A stretch of 63,997 bases of DNA, filler included, from Dirinaria sp. TL-2023a (lineage: Eukaryota), in NCBI GenBank assembly GCA_051941275.1. It is 12 parts of 12 records of this genome, joined end to end, with 100 filler letters (N's around TTAATTAATTAA, not from the genome) between each part and the next. Parts side by side here need not be neighbours in the genome. Positions count along the whole stretch, not along the records: positions 21,561 to 26,836 come from JAVEBF010001693.1; 11 more parts are not named here. One strand, written 5' to 3'. This document shows, piece after piece, positions 1,783 through 26,836 of the stretch (its first letter is position 1; every line of letters starts with the position of its first letter). The notes beneath the pieces are model-generated. The model saw nothing but the letters and a program-made list of their open reading frames with translations, was not told the origin of the DNA and made no database searches. Both the position numbers and the translations under genes were made by a program.

Positions 1783-4700
1783 ATGGAAAAAGTAGAGCCA
1801 GAAGGTCATGTCAGTCAACATACCACTCCTTCAGACACTCAAAAATCAACAAACAATGACAAAGGAGAGCTTTCAGACAACTTGAGACGTCTTTCGCTCA
1901 GTACTGCTGCTGCGACAGCTCTTCCAGCATCTTCGCCTCTTTCTACTCCTACAAGAGAGCAGCTTTTAAATGGATCAACAACCCTCACAGGCTCTCAGCA
2001 GCCACAAAAGACGCCCATCCGGCGCATCCCCAGCTCAAGCTCAATCAGCACCAACGATCGCTCTAGAACACCAGTCCTACAGAAACGAACGTCGCTAAGC
2101 TCTTTGCCTGGTGTTGGTGGTAGCCCTTCTTCACGATCTCCAGCTATCCGTCGAACATCTTCACATATCCCCTCATCATCTTCTCCTGGAAGCGGCGCGA
2201 AACCTGAACCCCTAGCACCGGTCGAAGAACCTCCACCGCCCATCATGACAGCTTCAGCACTTGCTCAAGAATATTTCAAGACCGAACTTCAGACGCACTA
2301 CGAGGAGTCTGACCAAGCCCGCGCTTGCAACACTGTGGTCATTCTTCAAGACGACTGCTACGGGCATCGCTACTCTCGGCCACGAACTTCAAGAGCTAGC
2401 CTCAGCAGTATTGTGGAGCGGCCGGAGCGTATACATGCCTCTGTTTTAGGACTAGCGACAGCGTATGTCAGGCTTGGAGGCCGCCATGCCGAAGGACACT
2501 CGCCGCTTCATGTTAAGAAGAGCGCACGAGCTCCGATGCCATTCCGAGTTCAGAAGACTAGGCGAAGCTTGCCACTGACCTCGCAGGCAGTGACAAATAC
2601 TCATGGACTAAAATGGATGAACGAGCTGAAGGCTATGTGCGAAGCCGCCGAAACCAAGCTGGCCTTGAACGGGAAAGAATTGATAAGGCCATCCTCACAG
2701 GAACAGGTGAATGGCAATCCAAAATCCGAGAAGCCGAAGCTTCACGAAGGCGATCTATACCTTTGTTCAGGGTCATTGGAGGCTTTGGAAGGTGCTCTTG
2801 GAGGTCTCTGTGAGGGCATCGATGCTGTTTTTGATGACAGCAGCGCAAAGCGGGCATTTGTCTGCATTCGACCTCCAGGACACCACTGCTCTGCAGATTA
2901 TCCATCGGGCTTTTGCTGGCTAAATAACGTCCATGTTGGCATTGGCTATGCTGCGCTCAACCACGGTCTCACACATGCAGCTATCATCGATTTCGATCTG
3001 CATCATGGCGATGGCTCGCAATCTATCGCGTGGGAGCATAATAGCAAGATAGCATCAATGCCAAAAAACGCTCCGATGTCAAAGAAGGTCGCAATTGGAT
3101 ACTTTAGCCTACATGATATTAATTCCTACCCCTGTGAGATGGGGGACGAGGAGAAAGTCTGCAATGCCAGCTTGTGCCTGGAGAACGCTCATGGGCAGAC
3201 GATTTGGAACGTCCATTTACAGCCATGGAAGACCGAGGCCGACTTTTGGAGGCTCTACGAAGAAAGATACCTTGTTCTAATCACGAAAGCTCGGGCTTTC
3301 CTGCGTTCTCACTCTGAACGTCTTCGCCAAAGTCCCGTACATCCTCAACCAAAAGCTGCGATCTTCCTCTCCGCAGGTTTTGATGCGAGCGAGTGGGAAA
3401 GCCCTGGTATGCAGAGACACCAAGTGAACGTGCCGACAGACTTCTACGCTCGCTTCACGCGTGATGTGGTACGCTTGGCAGACGAAGAAGGCCTGGGCGT
3501 CAACGGTAGAGTCATCAGCGTGCTTGAAGGCGGCTACAGTGATAGAGCGCTTGTGAGCGGCATCATGAGTCATCTTGTCGGATTGACGTCCTTGGAGGGC
3601 TCTGCATCAGCAACTGGTCCGATGAGCAACGGGCTCGGACGGGATATGGCCAGGAGGTTGGGGAGTCTCAATCTTGCTAGCGAGATGGATCGTAGTGCAC
3701 AACCACACCGGGAGCAAGATGTGGAGACGTTTGATTCCGAATGGTGGGCTCTTGCACGTCTAGAGCAGCTGGAGAATCTTGTGAACCCCCCTGCTCCCCC
3801 AGTAGGTCCCAAAAAGCAGCGCAGTGTGGTCGCTCCAACGTATTCGTCAACTACCCAGTCCTTCAGTGCGAAAATAGTGTCTCCACCAGCAGGTCGTCGA
3901 TCACTTTCCGGGTCTGGCACTTATTTCACTTCAGCTCAAACCACTCCAAGATTACCTGAGCAGCCACCGCCTCCAATTGATTGGGCCACCGCCGCGCATG
4001 AGCTCTCGAAGCTACTGATTCCATCTGATCGGCAGACTCGAAGCTGCAAGCCTGAGGAACTCAATGCCGAAGCGAGTCGTGCTCGTAAGGCAAGGCATTC
4101 AACGATTGGCTTACCCGCGGAGACGCCACCCGTTGTCCCGTCTGTTGCAAGCGTGACAGATGGGAAGCGAATGCAGTTGCGGGATAGAACGGGCAAAGCA
4201 CCGAAATACGCATCTGAAGATGAGGAGGAAAAGCCCGTGCCAAAAGCAAACAGACGAAGGACTATCGCTGATCCTGCCCTCCTGGCCCAGGATACCGAAA
4301 ACGCTCCAGCTAAGCCTGTGCGAGCAAGCCCAAAGAAAGCTTCCCAGCCTAGAAATCGGCGCCTCAGCACTGCCTCGAGTGTTGCATCGAACAATAACGA
4401 CAAGCCCGTGGAAGATAGCCTTGGAGCCTCTACGGATCCCCAGCCTCGGAAAGATCCTCTTCTTGTGAAAAAGATTCGTGCACCAAACGAGACTCGTGTG
4501 AATGCTCCCAAGCCGAAGCCTGCCAAAAAGCCACCACCTGTCCCTAGATTTCCCTCTGGAGCCTCGAACGCATCGACCGCAGTAGCAACAATTCCAGAAG
4601 CTGATCAAGCGGCTACTGTTGGGAATAATGAAGTTAAGAACAGTGAAGTTGACAGTCTCGCCTCCAGCATGAAGAAGATGACAATAAAACTGAATATGCC

Positions 4701-5301
4701 GCCAAAGGAAGTTCAAGAGGCGAATGAAGCCAAATTGAAACCCGCAGCTCGAGGAAGGCCAAAAAGTGCAACCACAAAAACTACGAAGACCGTGCAAGGA
4801 AATAAACCAGCAGCGGTACCTTGTACAGTAAAACCTGATTTCAAAAACGCAGATGCCACTATGACTGATGTGCTCAGTCAAGCTACAGAAGGAACACAAG
4901 AACCTAAGCCTCCAGCAACCCAGACTCTGCCGTTGACAACGCCACCGCAAATGCCTCCCAGTGAATCTATAGTCGCCTCTACTTCTAATCCAGGCAGCCA
5001 CGGCCGTTTAGATGAATTCATTCGTGATGCACCACCAACAGAGCAGATCGAGCAGCCCACGATGGCGCCAGCACCGGCATCAGAACCTGCATCCTTCGCT
5101 GCGCCCAACGCTCCCAACATCCCAGCTCAGATATCACCCAGTATGACACCAATGATCCTCCCTCAACCAAATCCGATCCCCAGCCCCACAACGACCCCCC
5201 AATTTGCCCCAAAGCAGGAAGAAGGAAAAACAGAAGCAGAAGAAGTAATCTCACCGCCAGCACCACCAAACATTCCTTACCCTCTCCCGCCCGCCGAAAT
5301 C
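1783..5301 (+). CDS. HOS3: Hos3-type histone deacetylase with long low-complexity N- and C-terminal extensions, truncated at the contig end
   Basis: Intronless ORF with HDAC motifs ERPER, RPPGHH, GFCWLNN, DFDLHHGDG, SLH, SAGFDA and LEGGY. The H.YSRP and LHEGDLYLC segments are typical of fungal Hos3. Confidence 0.9.
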
Positions 5302-5401
5302 NNNNNNNNNNNNNNNNNNNNNNNNNNNNNNNNNNNNNNNNNNNNTTAATTAATTAANNNNNNNNNNNNNNNNNNNNNNNNNNNNNNNNNNNNNNNNNNN
5401 N
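5302..5401. other. Artificial contig linker (first of 11)
   Basis: 44 N + TTAATTAATTAA (stops in all six frames) + 44 N. Identical linkers lie at 10695-10794, 16081-16180, 21461-21560, 26837-26936, 32207-32306, 37577-37676, 42942-43041, 48306-48405, 53655-53754 and 58994-59093. Contig lengths fall from 5293 to 5239 nt. Confidence 0.99.
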
Positions 5402-5845
5402 TTCCCCGTCTTCTTTCGACACTGGGAGAACGCTCCTACTCGATAAGTTACTCATAAATACATTCTGAACCAAATTGTGCGTTTACCCACCACCACCACC
5501 TACGTTTCGGAAACTCTCATCAAAATTTCTGTTGCTACGTGGTGGCTATACCGAGGTACCTCCTACTAGACATTCATAGTCAGTCAGCGAATTGTCCTTT
5601 CTCTTTGCATCTTATTTTGCCCTTACTCGGCAAAATTAATTGGATTCCTACGACCACGAAAAATTCATGTTAACATGCATTGCCATGCCACGTTGTTTCG
5701 TCGACGACAAGCTCATTTCCCTGAGCCAAGTGTCTCGTTCTCATCGCTTGCGGGTGCAATAATAAATTACATACATCCAAGTATCGCTTCCTATGAGGAG
5801 ATGTTGGCCATACACATCGCTAGCAAATATAGTTTTTTTCGGAAG

Positions 5846-7351
5846 CTACAACGTGTATCTGAAGTCGGGGTGATCATCCCCCAAGTTCTCTTGCTCCTGA
5901 GCTGGGAGGTCGAAGCGATAGTCCCTTTGCCCTCGGTCTCTCCGTTTATTCTCCGCACGAAGGCCCAGAAACAAAGCCGTACAGCAGATACCAGCCATCA
6001 TGTTGAGCGCAAACCCAACACCGAATCCCGCGGGGTATTTTGGTGCTTGTTTCGAGATGAACACATTGGATGAGACCAAAGCTGCGCAGTTGCCTCCTCC
6101 AATCTGGAAAGCCGATCCGATAACCCGCCTATACCCCGTACCCAGGTTGTTCATATTCCAGACTACAAGCACAGGCATTAAGATATATACTCCCGCAGTG
6201 ATTGCGAACATTCCGAAGTAACGAGCACCGACGGGTTTGGCCTGTGCCAATTCAATCGTCCACCCAATCATCGCAAGAGCGATGCCTAGCATACAAAATG
6301 TGTAACGGTGTGATACTCGATCGCTGAACCATGCGACGGTTATAGACAGCACGAGTGCAACCATAAAGACCGGGATTGTATGCACTTGAGCTTTCGAAGC
6401 CTTGTACCCTAGTTGCGTAAGTATGGTGGGCTGGAACGAGACTACTGACGATGCCGAGTTATCAGCCCCGAAGTATGCGAGCATGCCTGCCCAGACCTTC
6501 CAGTCGGTCAATGTATTGACGAATGCTCGGAAAGTAAGACGATCTGGCTTTCGATGTCCCCGGTCTTCAGCGAGCCGTTTCAAGAGCAATGCTTTGTCTT
6601 GAGCGTTCAGGAATTTGCAATCTTCGGGCCATGGAGCGATGGTAAAGGAAGCAACAACGCTTATCACGACAGTGATCAATCCTTCAATGATAAAGATCCA
6701 TCGCCAACCTTCATAGCCTCCAACACCATCCATCTTCGCGAGGAGGTAAGCAAGAAATCCACTGAAAGCTCCAGCCAAAATCGCAGCACTGAAGAATATA
6801 GAGTACCGAAATTGGAATTCGTGACGTTTATAGTACGAGCTGATCAGGTACGCACACCCAGGTACGAACCCAGACTCGAAAAAGCCCATGAGCGCTCTAC
6901 AAGCAGCAAGACCTCCGAGATTCCGAGTGAAGCCTTGTCCCATGGTGCAGATGCCCCAGGAGAACATTAACCCGCTTAACCACCATGATGGCTTGGTCTT
7001 CTTAAGCAGCATATTCATGGGAACTTCGAAGAGGACGTACGGTATCGTGAATGAAAATAAGGCAATGTTGTACCCATTGCTCTTCGGTGGGATATGTAAG
7101 CTTTTCTCCAAACCCTCGATCCTGGCATTCGCAACATTTGACCTATCCACGAAGGATACCAGAAACAAGAGAAAAAGGATTGGAAGCAGAGCGAGATCAA
7201 GCTTGAGCAGCAGCTTCTTCTCGTGTGCGTGGTCTGTCATGGGCAAATCTTCGGATGGGTTTGATGCGTATCCTCTCTTTTCTTCGACAGCAGATGGCAT
7301 ATTTGGATTTGAGATTCTAGGGGCTTCTTTCTCATAGATTGGTAGGTCCAT
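5846..7351 (-). CDS. MFS transporter, anion:cation symporter (Dal5/Tna1-like) family
   Basis: 501-aa intronless ORF with about 12 hydrophobic segments and the motifs KLDLALLP, FVDRSNVANARIEG, FEVPMN, CRALMGFFESGFVPG, GGYEGWRWIFIIEG and a C-terminal LGDDHPDFRYTL. Confidence 0.93.
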   Translation of the reverse strand: MDLPIYEKEAPRISNPNMPSAVEEKRGYASNPSEDLPMTDHAHEKKLLLKLDLALLPILFLLFLVSFVDRSNVANARIEGLEKSLHIPPKSNGYNIALFSFTIPYVLFEVPMNMLLKKTKPSWWLSGLMFSWGICTMGQGFTRNLGGLAACRALMGFFESGFVPGCAYLISSYYKRHEFQFRYSIFFSAAILAGAFSGFLAYLLAKMDGVGGYEGWRWIFIIEGLITVVISVVASFTIAPWPEDCKFLNAQDKALLLKRLAEDRGHRKPDRLTFRAFVNTLTDWKVWAGMLAYFGADNSASSVVSFQPTILTQLGYKASKAQVHTIPVFMVALVLSITVAWFSDRVSHRYTFCMLGIALAMIGWTIELAQAKPVGARYFGMFAITAGVYILMPVLVVWNMNNLGTGYRRVIGSAFQIGGGNCAALVSSNVFISKQAPKYPAGFGVGFALNMMAGICCTALFLGLRAENKRRDRGQRDYRFDLPAQEQENLGDDHPDFRYTL

Positions 7352-8112: not shown

Positions 8113-10047
8113 ATGTTCGCGGATCTGAGCTCCGTCTTCGATGAAGTACTGAATCCAGTTATTTAGGAAATACACGACTTCCATAGCCTTCTTCGAGGCG
8201 CTGTGGGATGTCCGTACCCATACAAATGAGATTAGTAACCATCCATAGCTGATGGTGGCATGTACAGGCAGGAGTAACTCATTGTTTTGTTAACCTCGGC
8301 TCAGACCATCCCAGCATACTCGATGCTATCGCCCAGAACAGCAGAGTTCCAAATGGACGCTTTCCACGAATTATTACTTGCCCGCATGAGGTATGCGAGT
8401 ATTCTCAGCAGGCTCTAACAGGATCATATTGTGCTGATGATTGTGTAGATGGTGGCCTTGTCAATGGCAGATGGCTTTGCTCGTCTCACGAACAAGCCGC
8501 AGGCGGTAATTGTTCATGTCGATGTAGGTACCCAGGCCCTGGGACCTGCTATCCATAATGCCTCGTGCGGACGGGCTCCCGTACTCATCTTTGCTGGATT
8601 GTCCCCATTCACCTTGGAGGGAGAGATGCGAGGCTCAAGAACAGAGTTCATCCATTGGCTGCAGGATATCCCCGAACAAAAGGCCTTAGTTGCGCAGTAT
8701 TGCCGGTATACAGCCGAGATCAAGACCGGGAAGAATGTGAAGCAGCTGGTCAATCGAGCTCTGCAATTTGCGACGAGCGATCCCAAAGGTCCTGTCTATT
8801 TAGTGGGTGCGAGAGAGGTGATGGAGGAAGAGCTGGAGCCTTATGATATTGTTCAAGAACAATGGACTCCTGTTGTAACCGGTTCAATGCCAGAATTGGC
8901 CATCGCGGAAATTGCACAGGCCCTAGTAGATGCTCAACGACCCATGATAGTCACTGGATTTACAGGGAGACGCCAAGAGTCAGTGCCTGAGCTTGTGCGT
9001 CTCGCTGAGCTGGTCAAAGGTCTGCAGGTATACGATGCCGGAACGACCGAGCTCTCATTTCCCTTCAACCATCGTTCCTGTATCAGCCCTACTACAGGCG
9101 CCAGCAAAGCACTCGAGTCGGCCGATTTGATTCTTGTCTTAGACTGCGATGTCCCATGGATCCCTACTCAGCACAGACCTCGCGCCGATGCTCGAATATT
9201 CCACATCGACATCGATCCTCTTAAAGCGCAAATGGCTCTTTTTTACATTCCAGCCACAGCCCGCTATCGAGCAGACAGCTACTCTGCTATCTGCCAATTA
9301 TATGCATACATATCTTCTTCGCAATCTCTCAGCGCAAGGCTATCTGAGCCCATCTACAGAGACCGATGGGACGCTCTTGCTGCGTCACATTCAGCAGCTA
9401 TGGGCGCCATTGCCGCAAAATTCGCCCCTCTTTCCGATGACCCCGATGCAGCGATTACTATATCCTACCTGAGCGCACGTATTCGTGCCCTCGTACCCCA
9501 CGACACAGTCTACGTCACCGAAGCAGTGACGAACCATGTACGTATGACAGAGCAACTGCAGCCATCACTCCCAGGGACATGGTTCACCAAAGGCGCAGGC
9601 GGTCTGGGCTGGGCCTGCGGCGCAGCGCTAGGTATCAAACTTGCCGCCTCACACACCAACCCAGAGGAGAAAGCGTTCGTGTGCTGCATCACCGGCGACG
9701 GATCCTTTGTGTTCTCGCATCCGACAAGCGTGTACTGGATCTCCGCGCACTATTCTCTGCCCATGCTGACCATTGTGTTGAACAACGGCGGATGGGCTGC
9801 ACCACGGCACAGCGCGAAGTTTGTGAACCCGGACGGACCCGCGCAGTATGCTACCAAGGAGGAACTGGGTATTGGCTTTGGCGATCTGCCACCGGATTAC
9901 GGCGCGATTGCGGAGGCGGCAGGGAGGGGTAGGATCTGGAAAGGACGGGTGGAGAGAGTGGGCGATGTGGATCGGGTGTTGGGGGAAGCGATCGCGGTGG
10001 TGAAAGGTGGTAGAGGAGCGGTTGTTGATGCTGTTTTGGGTCCTTGA
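8113..10047 (+). CDS. Thiamine diphosphate-dependent enzyme (acetolactate synthase-like / benzoylformate decarboxylase-like)
   Basis: Exons 8113-8114?, 8167-8209, 8268-8390 and 8449-10047 give (M)KYTTSIAFFEALWD|AGVTHCFVNLGSDHPS..TCPHE|MVALSMADGFAR. The ThDP-binding motif GDGS-x-NNGG is present. Confidence 0.9.
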
Positions 10048-11178: not shown

Positions 11179-13699
11179 TTACAGCTGATACCATGGGTCC
11201 ATGGGACCCAGATCCCCATCCCCGGCATCCATCATCATCGTATTCAGACCCCACTCCCAGACCATGTCGTCGTCCAGGGGAGGCATAGGCATGATCAAGC
11301 CATCGTCGTCGTTCTGATCCAGTTGACTCTGCGGCACCGCCGGCAGCGGCGGTGCTAGCTGTGATGATGATGATGATGATGATGGGAACTGCCAATCTCC
11401 ATTCACGGCGATCGCAGGAGGATCCTGCACCGAACGCTGATTGTTGGCCTGATTATCATGCAGCTTGAGATTCGCGATCGCATTATTATTCTCCGGATCC
11501 GGCTGGAGAATATCGTGCTCGTTGGTGAGAGCGGGTGTACGCTCGCGATCGACGTCGCGGTCCGGCAAGGGTTTCGTGAGATCGCTGCTGTAGCTCCTGC
11601 CCCCCCGTTCGGCTTTGAGTACGGCGATCTTCTGCATCGCGTCGTAGAACAGGCTGGCGCCCATCCGGCTCCTGAGGCGCGCTTCCGGCGGCAGTTTGCG
11701 GTGGCCCGACGCGTGCCATTTCCCTAGTAGTTCTAGGTTGTAGGCCAACCGTGCCCATTGGTTTCTCGGGTTGTTCAGGGAGCAGCGCGTGAAGAGCGTG
11801 TGTGCGTCTCGGATGTGGTTCATGCATCGCACGCGGTCTTCTTCCATGGGGTTGGGGTAGGAGGAGAGGAAGAGGTAGAGCGTCGCGACTGCGTAGTAGA
11901 GGCTGAAGAAGTATGGTTTGGGGTAGTGGATTTGGGGAGGGGCGTGGGAGTTTGGGGTCTGCCGCGGGACTTCTTTATATGTGTGGATGATCGAGATCGC
12001 GGTCTGCATTGCTTCGTGCATGATCTGGCGAAGCGATGCCAGTGGCTGGGACGCATCGTTGCTTGCCCAGTAGTGGGTTTCGCCCTGGAACGGGAAGGAC
12101 CAGCCGTAAGTGAATAGTTTGGCGGCCAGGTACTGCATTTCGGTTGCTGTGCTCCAGCCGCCCTTGGACGTATACCGCAGGTTTTCCAGGTCGAATTTCC
12201 AGTCCCTGACGCCCGCGATCCGGGATAGTGCCGTGTCGTCGCTTTGCTCCTGAAGCGCGACGGAAGCTTTGGCGACGATTCTTTGAATTTCGGTCTGCGT
12301 TGCCAGGTCCGGATCTGAGGTCAGATACTCGTGGCTAAGCCGGGATATGGTTTGAAAATCTGACTGTTTTCCAATAAGTGGTGGCACCCCCATGCATTGG
12401 CTCATACTGGGCTGAAGTCAGCAGTCTGAGATACCGGGATCTGAACATCTGCCGGCTCTAGCAGAATAGCAATTGGAAATCAAGCCTCAGAAGTCACTGG
12501 GCCATAGGCTTTTGGTGTGTGTCAAGAAGTCTTGGTCCAAACGGCCATACTTACATTGTCGTGAACCGGAACAGATGGAGCCATGTCTTTTTCCGCAATT
12601 CTATCTCGCGTAGTGTGAGGTTTGGGAAGCCAAACTCCCGCTCGTCCCCGGGCCGATGTAGTCCAATAGCCACTGCCGCGTTGGTGATCATACCCAGAAA
12701 ATTCCAAGATGGGTCTTGTGATTGCAGAGGTGTAGGTAGTGGCCAGTGACACAGTATCAAAATCGCTTGTATGGTAGGTAAGGAGTGCATTGGCCGGACA
12801 AGGTAAGTTGAGAGCAATTGCTCATAATGAGCGATCAAGGGTTTATAGAGTGAGCAATGTTCATGGTGATATCGACATGAGGTCACAATTATTGTCCAGA
12901 ATAGGAGCCGAGACCGGCTTTTCAGCTCCACTAGAGACAATGTTGTATCTAGCTCTGGGCAATGGGAATAGTAGTTAAGGTAAAAGCTAGACTTGTTGTG
13001 AGCTGGGACATTGAAGGTTCATAGCATAATCTCACTGTTCGAAGAGCTGTACGGAGGCACTGCCCGATAACGTAGCATCACCTATAAAGTTGTGATGTCA
13101 GCGTTTGATGATGGATTTACTGAATTCGAAGCTCTACCAAGGGTTTCATCCTCAAGAGTCAAGGCGGAGAAGTCTGGATGGCCAATCCCAAAAAAATTGT
13201 CACTATGATTAGCGCAGGAACCTGAAGATGGCTGGTAAGTCGACAGCTGAGGCACAGCATCGGGGGTCATTGAACGAGAGTCGTAGGCCGTTTCAGATAT
13301 CTGAGATTTCTCAGACCCAGCGCTGGATCTCAGTGCATGCTGCAAATTATTGACTTCTGCAGTAAGCTCCTGCAACTTGCTGCCCACGTGTCAATTCCCA
13401 TGGTTGCGGGGCTTCCAAGTAGGACCTACTGTCTAGTCGGTACCCGTTTGAAGTTGGCATCCATCCTGCAATCAAGGCTTCTGCTCTGACATCGTGAGCA
13501 GGGGGCCGGAAACGTCTCCGCAGAGTCGCATCGCAACTACCGCTGCTGTCAGTACCTTTTGATAGCCAATGAAACAGGTTACGCCTACTTTGACTTGGCG
13601 ACAGGATGTGCATGCCTTAGCTCGACTGGTACTGTTCCTCGCGACATCACCGGGGGATGGTTGACTAGTCTTTCGAATTGACGGTGCAGATTGAGACAT
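11179..13699 (-). CDS. Zn(II)2Cys6 transcription factor, Sef1/Leu3-like, multi-exon
   Basis: The spliced zinc cluster reads CTSCRQVK|LRCDSAETFPAPCSRCQSRSLDC. The middle homology region contains SRLLFWTIIVTSCR, IQAILILCHWPLP, AIGLHRP and RKKTW. Internal exon boundaries are approximate. Confidence 0.88.
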
Positions 13700-16180
13700 T
13701 CTGGAGACATGCGTTTTAGAGAAGAGACATGGAAACAGAAGCCAGAAGCATGAACGAGACGGCAAGCGTATTTCAGCCTTGAAAATCGTGGCTGTAATTT
13801 GGCTGCAGAGACATTACAGGATGAAAACCCTATTATAGTAGTACGAGCACTGTGACAGGGAGACGTGATTTTGCGAGCCCGACCACTTCTCTAAGGCATC
13901 AGGCCATATAAGGTAAAATCACATTACAGATGCGACGGAAATATGGGTGCATCGTTAGTACTTCGCCATGCAACACGACCAGCTACAAATACTCGCAACA
14001 AATACTGAGTGAAACTCGTGCGGCTGATGCCAAGCCAAATTTACCGGCGCTAGCAAGGATAGGGGCCAGGCTTAGGGCTTCTACAGTGGTGATACTTCAC
14101 TGTACCTAAGGTACGGTAGGTTACTGTATTTAGCTCCCCTATTGTAGACGGGATTTGCGGTATACGTCATACCTCGTGGGAGTTGATGAATCAATAGAAA
14201 GGTCGCAGCCTTCAGTCGAAATATATTCATTCCAGAAACTTCAGTCCAGCGTGTGGATGACGGCAGCTGCCTCGCCTGAACCATTGTTTCTGGACGCTCA
14301 CAAAACAAGTATTCCACCCAAAATCCTATGAATCCAGGAACTAAGTCAGGAAACGTTGTTAATTTTGGTATATTGACTATGACTGCATGGTCTGCACTCC
14401 AACGACCCCTGTGCTCGGTTTGGGCTTCACCCGGGCAAAGTCGATAAAAGCATTTGTTTGTCTTAGCTTATAGACCTGTACACTGTACAGTACTACTATT
14501 GTGGAAGAATCAAGCAGTAGGCTATAGATTTAAATACTTATATTGAGAATGAGCTCATCAAGAACCGCTGCAAAAAGAGCAATATCAGTCCTCAGATTGT
14601 TGGTGCTATCACTAGCGAGATCTCATGTTAGAATTCCACTTCAAGCAAGCTCAAAAGTATCTCGATTGCGGAGCAGGACTCCATCGGTCGCAAGTAGGTC
14701 CAAGATTATTTTCGTCGAAGGCTGCTCCATATTCAGACTTCGACGGAGATCAACCCCTTGAAAGGTCTCCTGCGTACCTGCTCATGAGTCTTCTGGAGAC
14801 CTGCTAATATAGACTAAGTCAGGCAGACTGAAAATCAGCGCAAAATTTCAAGCTTAGGGTGGGCTGGAAAGATTAAGCATCTCCGCACCTGCTGAAGAAA
14901 TGCACCGGCGTATAGCTGACTCGTATTGGCCGGTGCCATGCCTTAGCTCACTCGGACCGACGGTTTCCAGAGTCGGCTATCGATGTAAAATGATCCAAGG
15001 CGAAGCCATGTGCAGTCTCATGTACCATCTCAAAGCCGCAATCCAAGGGTAATTAATCCGATCCAGAATACGGACTGTTCTTGGCTGCATGAAATGAAGA
15101 CCGGTTGTGATGAGCTGGGATTGCAAGCGGTAAGACTGGCTCAATGCGATCTCGGAAGTGAAGAAGCTCGAGCGCGAAACAGACTGCGAGAGCAAATCCG
15201 CAGAGGAGTAGAGCGAGCAAGATTGTGGCAATGGAAGGAGGATTTGAATGAGCGCTTGCAAGTGCGACGAGCCCGATTCTATCTTGGTCCATGTTGTGTC
15301 GGAGTGGACTGCTGTGCAATGCTCTCAGCTTGCGTAGAACTCGATCAAAAAAGACTCAATGAACATGTAGCAGAGAGAAACAGAATAATTCTCCGCTTGC
15401 AAAACGCTGTACTTTGATGCGGTATAAGTGCGAGTTCCACGATTTCGCCGAATCGCTCGGCAGCCCGAATTTCGCAAATCCTTCAATTTTTCCATCAAAC
15501 CGCTGTGTTTCTCGAAATAGCAAGCAAGGCCTTGAACAGCGCAGCTTTCCCTGAAACACTTGCTTCGCCATCGCAGCTCATTGTGTACGAGAGCAGAGAT
15601 TCTGGATCACAGCATAAGTCCCAGCTAGCGCGATGTCTGCATCTAATTCGATCAGCAGGACATTGCCCGGAGGAGCACCCACAATGATCACGCCTGAAGA
15701 ACCGTATTAAATGACCAGTGTGACTTTCGCAGTGTGTGTATGAGTGAACAAAGACTCTATGACAGTGGCGAGACGCAGCGAGCTAGCTTTCATTCCGAAT
15801 TATCAATGGGAGTTAAGTCTCTATTCTCGTTGACTGGTACTGCGGTTGCGCAGCTTAATTTTTCGTCAAAAAGCTCGAGCTGACAATTCACAAAGAGAAA
15901 GTAAGAGGAAAAGAACAGCCCGTCATGTATCCAATTCAAAACTTTCATAGATGAAAGAGTCGTCGAATTATGAAGATGTTGCAGTCTTTGCGAAGATGAT
16001 TTCAGAGAAATACGAAATGATAATACGTGCGTGTCAATCGATCTCTGAGCGATGCACAAGAGTGGCTGTCAAACTGAAAGNNNNNNNNNNNNNNNNNNNN
16101 NNNNNNNNNNNNNNNNNNNNNNNNTTAATTAATTAANNNNNNNNNNNNNNNNNNNNNNNNNNNNNNNNNNNNNNNNNNNN

Positions 16181-18930
16181 GTCTAACCCACCACCACCTC
16201 CTCCTCTGAGTTTCGGACCCCCCTGCCCACTATCCACATATCCATCCATCTCCCCTCGTCCTCCTTGGCCCATCATCCCATCAACAACAACATCGTCAGC
16301 ATCATCCTCATCCTCCTCTTCGCCTTCAGAATCAGTAGTCACTTTCCCCGGCCCCACGGGCTGCGAGGCTGCTGCTGCTCCGGGCTGCGAGCGTTGAGCC
16401 TGGTAATGGTGGCCTTCGTTGGCTCGGTGCGCGTACGGATTCTGGTTCAGGGGAGTGGGCGCTTGCTGGGTGCGCATGAAATCGGCGTATAGCTTTCCAT
16501 TCTCGCCATCGGGGTAGCCAGGGCCAGGACCGGCAGTGCCGTTCCGAGAGCTTGGGCCACTACCGTAGGGGGAGCCGTTGATGGTGGTAGTGGTGGTGGT
16601 GGGTTGGTGGTGGTGCGATCTTTGTCTTTCTGCCATGATGTTCCTCCGCCCTTCCGCTGTATTGTTCACGTGCCTAACGCTGGGATCTTCTTTCTCGTAT
16701 TCGCTCGGTGTGCTTGGGATCTCGTGCGGTCGGTCAACCCCGAATCGGTGGGTTATTGCCCGATCCCTCGATGGTAATGTGCCTGTCACCTGTTCATTCT
16801 CTACCATAATTACCATCCACACCCCGACCTGATCATCACTGCCCAGCAGAGGAGTGCAGCTGATATATCTCGTCCTGCCGCCATCCGCTGCGCCTCTGCC
16901 ACCGCGGCTTCCGGGGCGAGAGTAGTCACTAGCGCCGTCCTCTGAGCGGCCTTGAGGTAGCCATGTTATTTTTGCGGTGACGGATTCCCCTGATTCAAAG
17001 GCTTCCATGAGGCCGTCGCGAACGTGGGAGGGACCACCAATACGGGAGAGGAAGGGGGTTTGCAGGAGACCTGGGATGCGGAGTGCAGGAGAAACGAAGA
17101 TTATACGAAGGGAGGGAGCCGGGCGTACAAGAAGGTACTATCCAATTTCTGTCAGCCTATTCCGCGTATCGGTGGAGATTGTATGCGGAAGAAGATGACC
17201 TACGTTCTGATACACGCCCGGCAACTTGCCGGACGGCCCTGAGGACGAGAGGGTCCAGTCCCTCCCGCTATCCATCTCCTCATCTTCATTACCTAGCAGC
17301 CTTCTCCTTAATGGCTCTCGTTGGCTCCTTCCGGCCCCGTAGCCACCTCGTATACTACCTCTTTCACTGTCCCTATCATGAAAAGAACTCGTTCTACTGT
17401 GCGCACTTTGTTCCAAGACCGAACTCTCATCTACACTCAGCATTTGCCCAAATTCACCCAGCCGTTTCAGACTTTTCTTGTTTGGCGTATCAGACTCTCC
17501 ACTGTCACGTTCCCTTTGAGCGCGGTCGTTAAGAGTCCGTTCAAAGGAATCTAACCCCCGGCCGTCCTCTATCAGCCCTGAGATGTCGACTTGCGCGCCA
17601 ATGATGTAGCGCACGTTACCGCGATTATCATATAAAGGTGCGGTCATGAGTAGGTTCATGAAGGGTTCACCACCCCGACGACTGCAGAACAAGCTATGTC
17701 AGTAGGTAGAAAGTCTCGGTGGAGGGTAGACCTACTAATTCAATATCGTTTCACTAGCATCTTGTCCCCCTTTGATATTGGCGGCAAGTCTGGAAACAGC
17801 TCCCTTGTTCGTTTTCGGGCCTTGCAAGAAGCGACAATTCTTTCCTATTACATAGTCTCTACCGTATTGCGTTGTCCGATAAAACTCTATTTAAGTCAGC
17901 ACTGACTCTCCCCTCGCTATTGGACTCGTGCGGGCATACCTTCGCTAGCATATACAATAGGAGTATCCTTTTGATTAGGATCAGCCAAACAGAAGACCTC
18001 AGCCAAACCCCCAACAAGCTCTCTCATCAGCGGCATAGTCGTGCCAGTTATTTCTCTCACCATACTTTCTGTGACTACTTTCACCAAGCAAAATGTAATA
18101 TATGCAGGCAATGCGTCATTGACCAGTGTTTCAAATGACTTCCTCGACCTTTCTTCAAACACCGCATCGACTACTGCAGCAGTGTTGGGTACCTTATTTT
18201 CCTCTTCTCCTGGCAATGGTTTCAGACTTTCTGCCAACGCATTTGCATATTCTACCGCTTTAATAGCCTTCTGCGCCTCAAGATATCTTACAAGTATAGG
18301 GGAATATGCTGGTTTGTAGCGGTTGAGGAAAGCAGTGAATCGCATGAAGAACGTGGGATCGCGGAGTATGGTTTGGAGGTGGTCTTCAGAGAAGAGGCGT
18401 TCGGAGAGTGTGTCCAAAAGTTTGACAGGTTTCCTCGGGGGAGGAGGATGCAGATCAAAGTTTGGAGCGCCTTCGGCTTGCGCTTGTGGTGAAGGCATGG
18501 TGGCCTCTGGAGAATTTTGCCCTTCGTTGATCGTTCTGGGGGGAACCGGGAAGCCCTCGGCCAAAACTGTAGGCTCATCTGATGCGCGCGGTGACGTGGG
18601 TCGTTCAGTCTTGAGCTGCGGAGCGACCCCCTGGTACTCGAGCGTTCGCATTGCAGGAGTGCTCTTCTTGCGCGGCAGCCGAGGAACGACTGCTTTTTCC
18701 TGGTTTGCATTATCCGGGGGATGTTGCTCTGAAGCAGAAGCCGAGCGACCGCTTTTGGTTCTTTTAGCTTCTTGCCTTTTATGGATTCCATTCTTTATCC
18801 GTCCTATGTCAAGGCCAACATCGAAGACCCGGCGAGACATAATCGGGTCTGGCTCTGCCGTAGGACAAATATGATTGAAAATCAGTAAAGAATCTGCGAA
18901 GATATCTGTAGGATCTTCCGCGGGTGGCAT
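16181..18930 (-). CDS. LOV-domain blue-light photoreceptor with an N-terminal RGS-like helical domain and a C-terminal PAS-like domain (fungal LOV3/RGS-LOV class), 3' truncated
   Basis: Exons 18930-17940, 17886-17736, 17681-17204 and 17137-16181 give GLAEVFCLADPNQKDTPIVYASE|EFYRTTQYGRDYVIGKNCRFLQGPKT..ILNY|RRGGEPFMNLL..YIIGAQVD, then YQN|YLLVRPAPSLRIIFVSPALRIPG..CTPLLGSDDQVGVWMV. The true start may be the ATG at 18840. Confidence 0.92.
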
Positions 18931-21560: not shown

Positions 21561-21743
21561 TTAAGGGGTTTTGCACTATACCCTCCTAGGCGTGTTACCC
21601 GCATACCCGACCCCCTATTTGTTGCTTGCACCTCCTGTACTTATACTTCTGCTTCTTCTGGTTTTTTCCTTCTTTTCTTCCTTATACTTAGTGTCCTAGT
21701 CAAATAGTACCCACATGCTATGTTCGCTGTGCAGGCCCTGACA
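21561..21743. mobile_element. Possible LTR end or repeat remnant at the contig edge
   Basis: The segment ends in ..GGCCCTGACA (TGTCAGGGCC on the minus strand, an LTR-like TG..CA terminus), is rich in TA dinucleotides and stops, and sits at an assembly break. No second copy is in the window. Confidence 0.2.
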
Positions 21744-21890
21744 AATCGCTCTGTATCCAGTCAGAATTCTTTAAGTCCTACAACTTGTGATCTTGGTCCA
21801 TCACCCTAAAGTCTACATCACTTTCGTAATTAAGCCAAGACAGACCCTATGCTAACCGATATCATATGAATACAGACTAGACAATTGTTA

Positions 21891-23562
21891 TTACTCTAGC
21901 CGGACCCCACCTTCATCATCGGAGACTTCTGGAGAATCGGACTGAATTCGAAACCCTACTCTGTCGGTCGTATCTGAGAGATTGAGGTCGATCGCTGCTC
22001 AGACCGTGTTGTCAGTTATTTCACCGATAGCGGTTGTACGCGTGGCACATGTCACTAACCGTCAAGGTTCGGACCATCTACTGACAGCGCACTTAATGAC
22101 GGACTGGCCTGAGAAGCAGCCGTTTTAGATGCCGACGTCATCCCAGCTGTTGAGTCGGCGTGGTAAGGGAAACGGGAGGTGCGATTCTCGATGTCAGTAG
22201 CCAGGTCTCGTCGGATCCATTCAATCAATTTCAACATGATTCGCTTCTGAAATGTTTGTCGTCCTTCAATGCTCTGGTCACTTTGGTTTATGTCCGGCGG
22301 CCGCCATCCCACATACAGCTTTTGGTGTGATGGAGGCGCAGCATAGCGTCCAGGATGACAGTTGATATATGCATAGCACAAATAGCATGCAGGCTTGCTA
22401 CATCCGATGTACTTGTCATTACCGTCCAAGAAATGGCATCCGTGTCTGTCGAAATGATCTATCAGGAGCAACTCTGCATGGACTCGAGTCTTGGTGTTAT
22501 GCTGGCTGTGTAAAAGCTCGGATAACTCGCAAGGGTCCCAGATTGATCCAAGTCTGGCCATGAACCTGGTCTGTTCCTCGACAGTGGAGTACATGCGATG
22601 GATAGTGCTCTCAATTGTAGCCTCCTTGGACGTCAAGGGCAGCTTTTGTTCCTTTGCGGAAGGCAATCTCTCAATGCGAAATCCTCCAGCGAAATCTTGT
22701 GCGAGGGATACAGCTGCCTCGACTAGCTTCTTCGCAATGTGGACGTGTTTCCCGAGCTTACAGAGCAGCTTAAATAACTGCTCAAACTCCGAACGGCGGC
22801 TTTCGCCTAGTCCGGCAAAGCGTTTCAGAATATCGAAAGAGGGACTTCTCCGCTTCTCATAGCATGACCGTACAATCATTTGATGTTGGGAAACGTCAGG
22901 CGCGGTAGAAGAATCATCGATGAAAGTCTCACGAAGCCATCCCACAAGGTCATCAAGGTGAGATTGGCCTTCCCGGGCGGCGTGGTCTGGTGAGCAAAAC
23001 TCTTAGCGCAAGCAGGCATCGGACATTGAAAAGCAGACATAGACACTGTATTTGACGTACCAGTTCTCATAGGTCCACTGCTGATGGTATCCAAGCATGC
23101 TGGAGCATACTTACGCGCCACCTGTTCGTAATACGTTTGGATCCGAGGAGCATTAAAGGCTACTATCCTAGATGTCAGATCTTCTAGCATCTTCTCACCT
23201 TCCAGTTGTCTGTCTTCCCTATCATCCAGCTCCGCAATATGTTGAACATCCGACAAAATCATTCCCAGGAATCGAGTGACTTCCACTCCGATATTTTCAT
23301 TGGCCGCGAGCCATACCAGTATGCCTTCTGGCGTCTGTTCGAGGGCTGCGGCAGTAACACGACGCGGACCTTTCTCGTATGCGCAGATGTAGGCAATTCC
23401 ATCCACAAACGATCGCCGTAATTTGTGGATACTAGGACTAATGCTGTTCGTATCGCTTTCGGGTTTAATCCTTTCCCCTCGTATTTGACCGAGAGCATTC
23501 AGGAGCAACAAAGGCTCATAAAATCGTCGTAGGACCTTGCGACTTACTGCGGCCTGTTTCAT
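21891..23562 (-). CDS. OTT_1508-like nucleic acid/nucleotide deaminase (OLD-like)
   Basis: Exons 23562-23061, 22986-22060 and 21994-21891. The Zn-deaminase motifs are RVHAELLL (HAE at 22480-22472) and YIGCSKPACYLCYAY, followed by SHQKLYVGWRPP. The N-terminal RFYEPLLLL..RRSFVDGIAYIC..VTAAALE..WLAAN pattern is typical of the fungal family. Confidence 0.88.
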
Positions 23563-24318
23563 TGTGTCGCTTGAGCCGTCAACGATGGGAAGCTTCAAAT
23601 CAAGTCATGTCACGAAGGCTGAATTAGTTCTTAGTGCTGCTGCCAGAAGTGATGCTGTACAATATTTCTGACGTTACCGCCCGGCACGTATACACAATGA
23701 CAGCTTTCCCCGGAAGATATATACTAAACAACGGTATTTTTCAGGTGAATCGAGTTGGAGCAAGCCAGGCCACGATGTTTACCTGGTAGTTTGCATTTTG
23801 ATAATGTCATTAGATGGGTCTCTGGAAGACTGGCAAGCTACATCACTTGAAAGGTTGAATGGCACAGACAAAGGTCTGTTCTGCATGGTTCAATTTAAGG
23901 CCGCCATGCACGTCTGTCTGCTTTAGGATTCGAGGTTGCAATCAGAATCACGCCATATCAATTCCCGCAACCCCTCTTTGCTTTCATTATCGGGCATCTT
24001 GCAGCTCAGTGCAGCCAATCAAGTGTTCGGTCAGGACAGTAAACACCTCGGTGCTGGACCCAAGGCTGAACAATAGGATGCTGACCTACAAGCATGTGCA
24101 ATACGAAAGCAACCCTCCCAAGTCCATCCGATTGGCTGCATTAAGGATGGTATAAGGTTTTGAAAAAATGAGTCACTTTGGGTCCGGAGCGCTTGCCTTA
24201 CCGTTACAATAAGATGTAGAAATCTATTAATGCCAATTAGTGGTCTGGCACTAGACACCAAAAGTCATATCATCCTCAACACCTTCCCTATGGTCTAGAA
24301 CTCAAACTGCAGAACACC

Positions 24319-26836
24319 ATGGGCACTGTCAGTACCACTGAAACGCTAGGAGAGAAGCTTCGGGTCCGCTCCCGAGGATACCAACTAGAGATGATGGAGG
24401 CCAGCATGCAAAGGAATATCATCGTTGCGGCAGGTATCAATGATCGAAACGAAACAGCTTGTTTTCTGACATGCAGCAGATGGATACTGGTAGTGGGAAA
24501 ACGCAGATGTGTGAAGATCAAACCAAGAAGTTTTCCTCATACTGACTCGAAACTTGGAGAGCGTTACTTCGTATATGCGCTGAAGTAGATCGTCTATCCC
24601 CAGGAAAGGCAGTGAACACTACCATGCATGCGTATTCCAGCGTCTGACTCATTCGCCAGATCATCTGGTTCTTGGCTCCTTCAGTTGCCCTTTGCGAGCA
24701 GCAATATCAGACCATAGTTTCCCAGCTGCCAGCAGTCCGAACAAAATTGTTATTGGGGAGTGACAATGTGGATCGATGGGGTGAGCAAAGCATCTGGGAT
24801 AAAGTGCTCCTGGGATTACATGTGGTGGTTTCGACTCACGCAATATTATCCGATGCCCTTGGTCATGGGTTCGTTAGAATGAGAGATCTGGCATTGATAA
24901 TCTTCGATGAAGGCAAGCTGGCCTACGCGTAGAGGCCTTTCATACTCACGATTTCGCAGCTCATCATTGCACCCGAAATCACCCGGCAAATCGAATCATG
25001 AGAGACTTCTACCACCCCGCGAAATCAGCATCAGGTTCGAGGAAAGTTCCTTGCATTCTAGGCCTTACTGCAAGCCCGATTGTAAGATCGAAGCCAGCAG
25101 AAACGGAGTAAATATCTCTACCACCTAGATTAGTGACACTCCAGCTTATTGCTCGTTAGGACGATCGAAGCAAATCTCGACTCCATCATAGTAACCCCTC
25201 GTGTGAACAGACAAGAGCTACTGAGTTTCGTACATCGTCCTCTAATTGAGACAGCTATTTTTGATCCAACAGTATCCAGTCTTACGATCATGTCCGATAC
25301 GCTAGCCGCGCTTAAATTATTAGTTCAAGAGGATGATCCGTACAAGGTCCTACCCAGTCTCAAGTTGGCAGACGAAGTGAAAGGATCAAAGAAGAAGACT
25401 CAAATGAGAAAATTCTTCAATAAAGCCGCGCATATTGAGGCTGAGCTTGGTGCATGGGCGGCTGATTACTTTATAGGCGCATCAATCGACAGTTTCAAAA
25501 TGGCAATTCGCGAAGGCGGAGAGAAGCTTTTTGGATGGAAAAGCGCGGAAAAGGATAATGTCATGACGTCTCTATCGAGAACAATGATACCAAGGTCTTT
25601 GGCCTCGCAAATTGAAGGAGGCTTTCCGAAGACGTCCGCCAAATTCGTGTGCCTTCTTAACGTCCTTAATCGTGTCTACACGCCGAGTTTTTGTGGGCTA
25701 ATATTTGTCAATCAGCGAGCCACGGTTGTCGCACTCAGTCGGCTTTTGTCAGCGCATCCCGAGACTAAAAAACTTTTCAGATGTGGGACATTCGTGGGTA
25801 TGTCGAGCAATGTGCACAAGAAGAAAGAGCTTGGCGATCTGTTGGACCCTCAAGTACAACAACATACATTAGACGGGTTTCGTGAGGGATCGCTCAATCT
25901 TATCATTGCCACGAACGCCCTCGAGGAAGGGATAGACGTTTCAGCTTGTAACACTGTCATCTGTTTCGACGAGCCACCAAACCTTAAATCGTTCATGCAA
26001 AGACGAGGAAGAGCGAGGAAAGAGGAGTCTAACTTCTTCGTGCTATTGGCTCACGATAGCAGCGTTGTTAACGTCGAGAGATGGCGTCAACTTGAAGATG
26101 AAATGACCGAGGCCTACCAACGTGATCGGATGATGGTAGACGAAGCACGCACGTGGGAAAATATTTATGAGCAGGGATACAGGAACTTTGTTGTTGAATG
26201 TACTGGGTACGTCTCATATCCTCCCTTGTTCAGAAGTCGAATGACATTGTGAGCAGCGCGCTTCTCACCATGGATTCCGCTCTCGGGCACCTGAATCATT
26301 TTTGTACGACTCTCCCAAAAAAGCCATATGCCGCCCACCAACCAGCCTTCAGCTTCACGCAAGGCGAGGCAGCCAGCCAGATTTGGGCCACGGTGTGTTT
26401 GCCGAACTCCATCGATCCCTCTCTTCGTCAGACACGCGGGATACGTAGCTGGCATTCAGAGAAGATGGCAAGTAAAGATGCTGCCTTCCAAGCGTACGTG
26501 AGATTGTATCAAGCTGGCTTGGTGAATGATCACCTCCTGCCCTTTCGGCCAGAGGACCCAGAAACCTTCGAGAAACGACCTCCATTCGTATCTGTGCCCG
26601 ACCAGTACAATCCGTGGATCGAGATTGCAGCATCTTGGGAATCGACCCGCAAATTCTATCGCAAGGTGTTATCCATTCACCGCCCTGGCTTGAGTACGTT
26701 CCAGATAGTTCTCATGCTTCCAATCCATTTTCGATCGTTGCCTGACTTCTCTTTGCATATCGACGCTGAGGTTACCTATTCCGTCTCAATGCATGAGCAA
26801 TTCATGGATGGAATTAGTAATAAGACTGATCTGTCT
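24319..26836 (+). CDS. dcl2: Dicer-like protein 2 (helicase and dimerization/DUF283 domains visible; RNase III half lost at the contig end)
   Basis: Spliced product [29 protein letters not shown]|..[118 protein letters not shown] matches the fungal DCL2 architecture. Confidence 0.93.

Follow-up and report, generated by a model that had tools for sequence, protein, structure and literature searches.

The described systems closest to the locus presented here come from two sides of fungal antiviral biology. On the deaminase side, the OTT_1508-like deaminases OLD-1 and OLD-2 of Neurospora are reported as virus-induced adenosine-to-inosine (A-to-I) editors of the neighbouring zao genes, and OLD-ZAO systems are reported in Eurotiomycetes, in Sordariomycetes and in a single basidiomycete, Dicer going unmentioned in the accessible part of that report (PMC12754623). 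On the RNA interference (RNAi) side, the accessible part of Melet et al. (2025; PMC12663654) splits ascomycete Dicers into clades As1 and As2 only and assigns the DCL2 of filamentous ascomycetes (dcl2 of Cryphonectria parasitica, dcl-2 of Neurospora crassa) to As1; induction of dcl-2 by virus is reported, and induction by double-stranded RNA (dsRNA) cited, for N. crassa and C. parasitica (Honda et al., 2020; PMC7648066). Here we describe a locus of Dirinaria sp. TL-2023a (assembly GCA_051941275.1) in which a deaminase gene of the OTT_1508 family and a DCL2-class Dicer gene diverge from one short intergenic region. The pair is genuine, both genes are expressed and evolution has retained it; we read it, at a probability of roughly one half, as a co-regulated dsRNA- or virus-response cassette. 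The window, by which we mean the whole stretch of 63,997 nucleotides (nt) that was analysed, consists of twelve contigs of about 5.3 kb joined by artificial N44-TTAATTAATTAA-N44 spacers, so that gene neighbourhood can be read only inside each piece; both genes lie on a single piece (Table 1). For comparison, metagenome contigs were scanned with an alignment of the deaminase, which gave 109 confirmed loci, and the best 80 were kept and are referred to by L-numbers.

Like OLD-ZAO, the Dirinaria locus places an OTT_1508-family enzyme with HxE and CxxC motifs beside a conserved neighbour from antiviral biology, and both have a tie to RNAi, given that QDE-2 is reported to repress OLD-ZAO in the Neurospora system (PMC12754623). 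It differs in that the neighbour is a Dicer, divergent on one promoter and without a premature UAG, whereas the OLD-ZAO neighbour is a zinc-finger transcription factor gene. We considered the pair as a classical OLD-ZAO member and hold this to be highly unlikely, with no zinc-finger neighbour of that kind among the flanking ORFs scanned at related loci and no premature UAG in the Dicer frames examined. With DCL2 the Dicer shares the order of DExD/H helicase, Helicase_C and Dicer_dimer domains, and the linked Dicers of L006, L007 and L039 carry two RNase III domains each; it differs in its grouping with a Helotiales sub-lineage, its fixed deaminase neighbour and the GC donors in three of its six visible introns. 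A further parallel comes from the animal ADAR enzymes, where the ADAR1-Dicer partnership links an RNA deaminase to dsRNA processing. Here too a deaminase is tied to dsRNA machinery, and a fungal sister clade has open reading frames (ORFs) for dsRNA-binding domains (dsRBDs) before the deaminase gene, but the deaminase clade is unrelated to that of ADAR and the fungal link is a genomic one. The OTT_1508-like toxins of bacterial polymorphic toxin systems are described as sharing the catalytic domain family and a GxxK before the CxxC (PMC3239186), whereas the fungal protein lacks their secretion and immunity context, appears to have the long helical insert described for fungal members and has a conserved acidic C-terminal tail. 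The Dicer-deaminase pair is best read as a new form of the deaminase-plus-neighbour theme. Full-text literature searches returned no description of this arrangement, in line with the supposition of the earlier note on this DNA, although the original OLD-ZAO work and its supplements may hold neighbourhood data that bear on this.

The identities that the earlier note had given to the two genes were borne out by Pfam, by a match in NCBI and by matches to named DCL2 proteins. Its coordinates also stood (ATGs at 23562 and 24319, a gap of about 756 nt and intact motifs), its start at 21891 being the last base of the true TAA, and so did its observation that no premature UAG occurs in the dcl2 exons that can be seen (739 amino acids (aa), no stops). 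The main exon of the deaminase matches OTT_1508_deam (PF14441) with an E-value of 9.8e-21 and 73.9 bits (cut-off 27), and the 510-aa protein derived from transcripts scores 72.8 bits. All three features listed for the OTT_1508 clade by Iyer et al. (2011, Table 1; PMC3239186), namely the catalytic HxE, the zinc-binding CxxC and the GxxK preceding the CxxC, are present. Across 24 aligned sequences H337, A338, E339, G362, C368 and C371 never vary, and C363 and K365 hardly do. The public annotation of the Dirinaria metagenome-assembled genome (NCBI protein Q9191_007635, 477 aa) is 100% identical over our 309-aa query and comes from a contig of equal length, 5276 bp; it takes as stop a TAG (22057-22055) that lies within the last intron and omits the last coding exon, and a 510-aa protein from Logan transcript contigs falls in the same 90% cluster as the deaminase.

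In the visible part of the Dicer, Pfam recognised the DEAD, Helicase_C and Dicer_dimer domains, and motif I (GSGKT) and the DEAH box are intact in the spliced reading frame. The best named Dicer matches were Aspergillus DCL2 proteins at 43-45% identity, and among the best 120 matches every Dicer-type name was DCL2, dcl2-1 or RNA helicase/RNase III, on which grounds the protein is assigned to the DCL2 class. All six Dicer introns are supported by RNA; three have GC donors (GC-AG), whereas all three deaminase introns are GT-AG. For the Helotiales orthologues of this Dicer, read-through translations indicate GT at those three donor positions.

Transcripts of both genes arise from a compact divergent promoter region, as supported by four RNA runs from one sample of one study, labelled lichen metagenome, which contain 24-50% of the sampled words of the contig. 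Contigs assembled from these runs match the genomic contig at 98-99% identity and are spliced, and therefore derive from RNA; they show presence and splicing, and transcript starts, expression levels and rare variants or edits lie outside their reach. Spliced contigs were present for both genes in three of the four runs and for the deaminase in all four. The two ATGs are 756 nt apart, and the outermost contig ends of the two genes leave at most 273 bp between them as a candidate bidirectional promoter core, an upper bound since contig ends do not mark transcript starts. Positions 24025-24200 had no RNA cover, which was not used as evidence on transcript boundaries. Of the bidirectional, dsRNA-responsive promoter that had been proposed for this locus, it is the transcription of both genes from one compact divergent region that the RNA contigs support.

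Dicer genes beside deaminase loci were sought by tblastn with the Dirinaria Dicer exons and then with full-length Dicers. A divergent Dicer lies upstream in four of the 42 loci having at least 1.2 kb of upstream sequence: L005, L006 and L007, whose deaminases are 44-47% identical to that of Dirinaria, and L039, whose deaminase is 26% identical. Among the 35 loci having at least 2.5 kb downstream, one (L048, deaminase 58% identical to that of L039) has a convergent Dicer, tail to tail and about 2 kb downstream. Hyaloscypha finlandica has a Dicer and a deaminase under consecutive accessions on one contig (KAH8771438.1 and KAH8771439.1), and so has Hyaloscypha sp. PMI_1271 (KAH8773876.1 and KAH8773877.1); we infer from the order of accessions the order of the genes. 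The L006 and L007 Dicers are 84% identical to that of H. finlandica.

The deaminase tree comprised 106 sequences: the Dirinaria protein, 71 of the 80 loci and 34 proteins chosen among 120 listed, with nine loci omitted (seven without a motif-bearing ORF and two too short). A clade of 43 sequences, with a support of 100 in the Shimodaira-Hasegawa-like approximate likelihood ratio test, unites Dirinaria, lichen-derived, Helotiales, Chaenotheca, Xylona and Aspergillus/Penicillium deaminases in roughly taxonomic order, and we take it to be an orthologous group; within it, three of four informative loci have the pair, Dirinaria not counted. The L039 deaminase belongs to a different clade of 13 sequences (support 99). 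In Dicer trees without a DCL1 outgroup, rooted only at the midpoint, the Dirinaria Dicer and the linked Helotiales Dicers grouped with a support of 99 in a quick tree of 51 sequences and of 100/100 in an LG+G4 tree of 30, and a branch supported at 100/99 parted them from the DCL2 of Caloplaca, Pyrenodesmia, Candelaria, Pycnora, Geoglossum and Dothideomycetes. An approximately unbiased test (30 sequences, LG+G4) rejected placement of the Dirinaria Dicer with the Teloschistales DCL2 set (p = 0.00047), the group having been picked after the tree was seen. The L039 Dicer clusters with that of Sarcosagium and with one of the two Pseudogymnoascus Dicers (97/97); with the L039 deaminase as query, none of the best 120 matches came from Pseudogymnoascus or Sarcosagium. 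These groupings are compatible with an old, co-inherited Dicer-deaminase pair that would have been split or lost repeatedly, and they point to a split within DCL2, so far unrecognised, that would set apart a deaminase-linked sub-lineage.

When L006 and L007 were compared by blastn over 10 kb on each side, a single block was shared (6,963 bp, 87.5% identity), comprising exactly Dicer, spacer and deaminase; it begins at the stop of the Dicer and extends some 250 bp beyond the deaminase. Outside it, L006 continues into DNA of about 12% GC, and in L007 a gene for a SesA-NACHT-DUF7791 protein of the NOD-like receptor (NLR) type lies downstream of the deaminase and faces it. Ratios of nonsynonymous to synonymous substitution (0.31 for the Dicer and 0.26-0.44 for the deaminase, in stop-to-stop frames that take in a little non-coding sequence) indicate purifying, not strong, constraint on both genes. 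Because the head-to-head arrangement is found again in Helotiales and in a third lineage, because its Dicers form a clade of their own and because it is all that L006 and L007 share, the comparison supports more than chance neighbourhood. The same block could be read as an accessory or mobile cassette, moved or transferred horizontally as a unit in repeat-rich regions, which would explain why the pair is patchily distributed and why the Dirinaria Dicer stands beside Helotiales and not among the DCL2s of other lichen fungi. The AT-rich DNA resembling the product of repeat-induced point mutation (RIP) that abuts the L006 deaminase and surrounds that of L001 fits such mobility, as do the DUF3435/DUF7924, KDZ transposase and copia gag ORFs adjoining other deaminase clades. 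Next to the pair in L006, L007, L039 and Dirinaria, however, neither a recombinase nor a transposase nor a terminal repeat was seen, and the 43-sequence deaminase clade, with lichen, Helotiales and Eurotiales members apart, roughly tracks taxonomy as vertical descent would. We consider a mobile cassette distinctly unlikely as the explanation of the pair, and mobility would in any case be compatible with joint function.

In the reading that we prefer, a co-regulated response cassette, the shared promoter would switch on deaminase and Dicer together when dsRNA or virus is present. The Dicer would cut dsRNA, and the deaminase would edit RNA in the same response, probably from A to I like the reported Neurospora OLD-1 and OLD-2. 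It would be directed at transcripts of the host response, or at RNA that is viral or a Dicer substrate, and not at a premature stop in the Dicer message. We infer co-induction, the RNA substrate, the base edited and a functional dependence between the two proteins because of the linkage itself, a separate association of the deaminase family with dsRBDs, and existing knowledge of the two families from Neurospora and Cryphonectria. The dsRBD association consists of ORFs with a Pfam dsrm match directly upstream of, and on the same strand as, deaminases of the L039 clade (three cases in two loci, Table 1). Spliced to the deaminase, such an ORF would give an ADAR-like architecture; a tandem gene pair is the alternative. 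What probability remains beyond one half goes mainly to neutral synteny and co-mobility.

Several observations weigh against a co-regulated cassette. The RNA comes from one sample and records presence only, and the Dirinaria Dicer is visible from its helicase through Dicer_dimer into the first part of the platform region, the contig ending before the RNase III half. No promoter motif common to the Dirinaria and Helotiales loci was found. Dicer linkage was present in only five of 52 informative metagenome loci and is not a property of the whole family. As L005-L007 and the two Hyaloscypha genomes represent one lineage, the occurrences amount to about three independent lineages, not eight. In Eurotiales, whose deaminases belong to the same orthologous clade, the genes were adjacent in none of the four genomes with usable data: in A. 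nanangensis and A. granulosus they lie on separate contigs, and in P. robsamsonii (007765/001362) and P. concentricum (002702/002077) their locus tags are not consecutive. In L001, the closest metagenome relative (64% identity), the deaminase stands by itself in a 3.3-kb island whose composition is normal, within DNA of 15-18% GC, and tblastn gave weak, scattered matches at E-values of 0.3-3 and no Dicer relic. RNA-DNA differences, moreover, were mixed in type and without an A-to-G excess (for X1: A>G 8, C>T 9, G>A 6, T>G 5, and others); we read them as between-strain variation. The synteny check suggested by the earlier note had a divided outcome, with recurrence in Helotiales and in a third lineage on one side and the separated Eurotiales genes and the L001 locus on the other.

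Much of this would also be expected from conserved microsynteny without joint function, in which two unrelated genes are locked together by a short bidirectional promoter not easily divided and stay adjacent until rearranged. Eurotiales separated the pair and lost neither gene, the L001 deaminase stands alone, the Dirinaria and Helotiales spacers yielded no common motif, and the activity of the deaminase may have no tie to Dicer. A locked promoter does not account for L048, however, where the genes are neighbours tail to tail with no promoter in common, nor for L006 and L007, which keep the pair though all flanking DNA differs. Retention across classes and in a third divergent lineage, the association of the deaminase family with dsRBD ORFs and the known virus-responsiveness of both gene families likewise argue for a link in function, and we regard microsynteny alone as unlikely, if far from negligible.

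A different possibility is a classical OLD-ZAO system, with the true partner, a UAG-interrupted zinc-finger transcription factor gene, just past the contig end and the Dicer a bystander. The contig shows just 330 bp past the deaminase stop, and OLD enzymes are reported to edit adjacent zao genes in Eurotiomycetes and Sordariomycetes (PMC12754623). Complete syntenic loci lend this little support. In L006, L007 and L039, 22 ORFs chosen among the listed ORFs of at least 110 aa had no C2H2, Zn-cluster or fungal transcription factor domain, and the gene downstream of the L007 deaminase is the NLR gene mentioned above. A scan of 375 ORFs flanking deaminases in 67 other loci (length of at least 120 aa, GC of at least 0.3, within 6 kb; nine identical-copy loci and four scanned separately were left out) gave no zf-C2H2 match at E<=1e-4, with the limit that ORFs below 120 aa and short exons would escape it; the only zinc- or transcription-factor-type matches were zf-CCCH (L045), RING plus PHD (L063) and Fungal_trans_2 (L069). 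We hold this alternative to be highly unlikely. Two possibilities raised in the earlier note lose ground with it: a zao gene past the contig edge is unlikely in view of the scanned flanks, and editing of dcl2 mRNA in the OLD-ZAO manner is not supported, given that the visible Dicer frame of Dirinaria and the long Dicer frames of L006 (1162 aa), L007 (1163 aa) and L039 (380 + 844 aa) have no internal stop and that the RNA-DNA differences are mixed.

We give a very slight chance to the deaminase acting on DNA, by cytosine deamination and perhaps in repeat defence, with Dicer small RNAs as the link to targets. Iyer et al. (2011; PMC3239186) place the OTT_1508 clade with AID/APOBEC-like enzymes and suggest cytosine deamination, and in L001 and L006 the gene adjoins RIP-like DNA of extreme AT content. 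Such AT-rich isochores are common in genomes of this kind and not specific to the gene, however, and the sole members characterised from fungi reportedly edit RNA from A to I (PMC12754623).

A bolder version of the co-regulated cassette, which we find doubtful, would make the pair an ancient and self-contained unit in which the deaminase acts on the dsRNA of its partner Dicer or on its products, an independently evolved counterpart of ADAR-Dicer. The pair would then be kept, lost or relocated as a unit, and the sister clade with dsRBD ORFs before the deaminase would be convergent. Within the deaminase family itself, a profile search of 1.84 billion representatives yielded, at E<=0.001, 4339 cluster representatives; the best 150 members were at most 799 aa long, and in Pfam searches of 16 longer members among those 150 and of the 510-aa form, PF14441 was the only domain in 17 of 17, with no dsRBD or RNase III fusion. 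Neurospora sequences were absent from these 150 and from the best 120 matches of each of two protein searches.

Fungal antiviral defence as currently described consists of RNAi and, since 2025, a separate OLD-ZAO editing switch checked by RNAi. If the co-regulated cassette is true, the pair would be the first genomic evidence that the RNAi and editing arms are physically wired together, under one promoter across classes. Hyaloscypha species are culturable carriers of the pair, which makes the proposal concretely testable. Lichen fungi may, moreover, possess a deaminase-linked Dicer that differs from their relatives' DCL2, which bears on inventories of RNAi genes and on the choice of Dicer to knock out.

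Table 1. Coordinates of the deaminase-Dicer locus and of selected features at related loci. Positions count along the window unless an L-number is given.
Feature	Position	Strand	Basis
Contig with both genes, 5,276 bp, N spacers on both sides	21561..26836
Deaminase, last coding exon: 33-residue acidic tail with GGV motif near the end, TAA 21893-21891; spliced coding sequence 510 aa	21891..21994	-	RNA contigs, spliced coding sequence
Deaminase, last intron, 65 nt, GT..AG	21995..22059	-	RNA joint 22060->21994 in 4/4 runs
Deaminase, main exon with HAE and GCSKPACYLC (zinc and GxxK motif)	22060..22986	-	PF14441
GCSKPACYLC, residues 362-371, intact (CSKPACYLC codons 22402-22376)	22405-22376	-
HAE codons, residues 337-339, intact	22480-22472	-
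Deaminase, intron, 74 nt, GT..AG	22987..23060	-	Predicted, then RNA joints in 4/4 runs
Deaminase, first coding exon (ATG 23562-23560) and 56 nt of 5' untranslated region (UTR); encodes N-terminal strands and start of long helical region	23061..23618	-
Deaminase, 5'-UTR intron 23619-23672 (54 nt) and upstream non-coding exon to at least 23946	23619..23946	-	RNA contigs join 23618 to 23673, continuing to 23925/23946
Candidate bidirectional promoter core, at most 273 bp	23947..24219		Outermost RNA contig ends of both genes (deaminase to at least 23946, Dicer at or before 24220)
Inverted repeat with CCAAT/ATTGG, inside the transcript gap	24005-24020 and 24130-24145
DCL2-class Dicer, 5' UTR from 24220 or before, ATG 24319, open at contig end	24220..26836	+	Pfam, RNA contigs
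Dicer coding exons	24319-24429, 24480-24508, 24560-24608, 24660-24912, 24960-25107, 25160-26206, 26257-26836	+	RNA joints
Dicer introns with GC donors	24430-24479, 24609-24659, 24913-24959	+	RNA contigs
dsrm ORFs upstream of deaminases	L042 8560-9192; L062 9073-9630 and 14969-15457 (both L062 deaminase copies)		Pfam
Extremely AT-rich (9-22% GC), RIP-like DNA at or around deaminases	L001 1-9400 and 12700-16090; L006 12500-21355

The acidic tail of the deaminase, which ends in GGV and one to three residues, is also found in L001, L003, L006 and L007, where an intron occupies the corresponding position, and in a separate clade (L026, L028, L047), where this intron is missing; retention of the last intron would yield a tail-less protein. 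In L025 an in-frame TAA (11459-11461) truncates the conserved tail. We rejected it as an editing site, the near-identical L026, L028 and L047 reading through there uninterrupted, and it is probably a nonsense variant. The AlphaFold2 model of the deaminase has strands at residues 69-87 followed by helices as far as the HAE helix, with a predicted local distance difference test score of 70-96 over residues 45-280, below 50 in the catalytic core (329-402) and 62.5 on average; Foldseek of this model against PDB gave no match at E<=0.001, just generic helical bundles. Upstream, the spliced deaminase leader (23563-23946) measures 330 nt and has six upstream ATGs opening reading frames of 1-35 codons, which suggests translational control. 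On the gene's 3' side, RNA contigs of three of the four runs pass position 21744 with 42-78 letters unlike the window; these could reflect a further splice in the 3' UTR or, at the end of the contig, a difference between strains.

The Helotiales spacers between Dicer and deaminase are 87% identical to one another and thus too similar for footprinting. An 11-bp tandem repeat, GGAGGCCYACT, lies mid-spacer in L007 (about 9240-9275), L006 (about 9540-9620) and L005 (about 825-880), at columns 415-490 of their alignment, and its copy number ranges from about three to seven among these close relatives. The repeat is absent from the Dirinaria spacer, and the whole window holds 17 near-matches against 23 expected.

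Around deaminases of other clades, transposon-related ORFs were seen in L009, L028/L047 and L036, among them DUF3435/DUF7924, KDZ transposase and copia gag. The DUF7924 and DUF3435 ORFs lie by the L028 and L047 deaminases (4045-6988), and those with DUF3435 presumably belong to the recombinase family of Starship captains. A superfamily 1 helicase (AAA_11/AAA_12) and a CCCH zinc-finger ORF lie near the L045 deaminase (13831-18413), and dynamin-family GTPases flank those of L025 and L077 on both sides (4902-6359, 13911-15319). The NLR gene of L007 occupies 11975-14860, and further NLR-type genes lie by deaminases in L052 (NACHT, 1-753) and L065 (NB-ARC-TPR and HET, 14624-17532). These NLR-type neighbours hint that the deaminases may cluster with other fungal immune-like genes.

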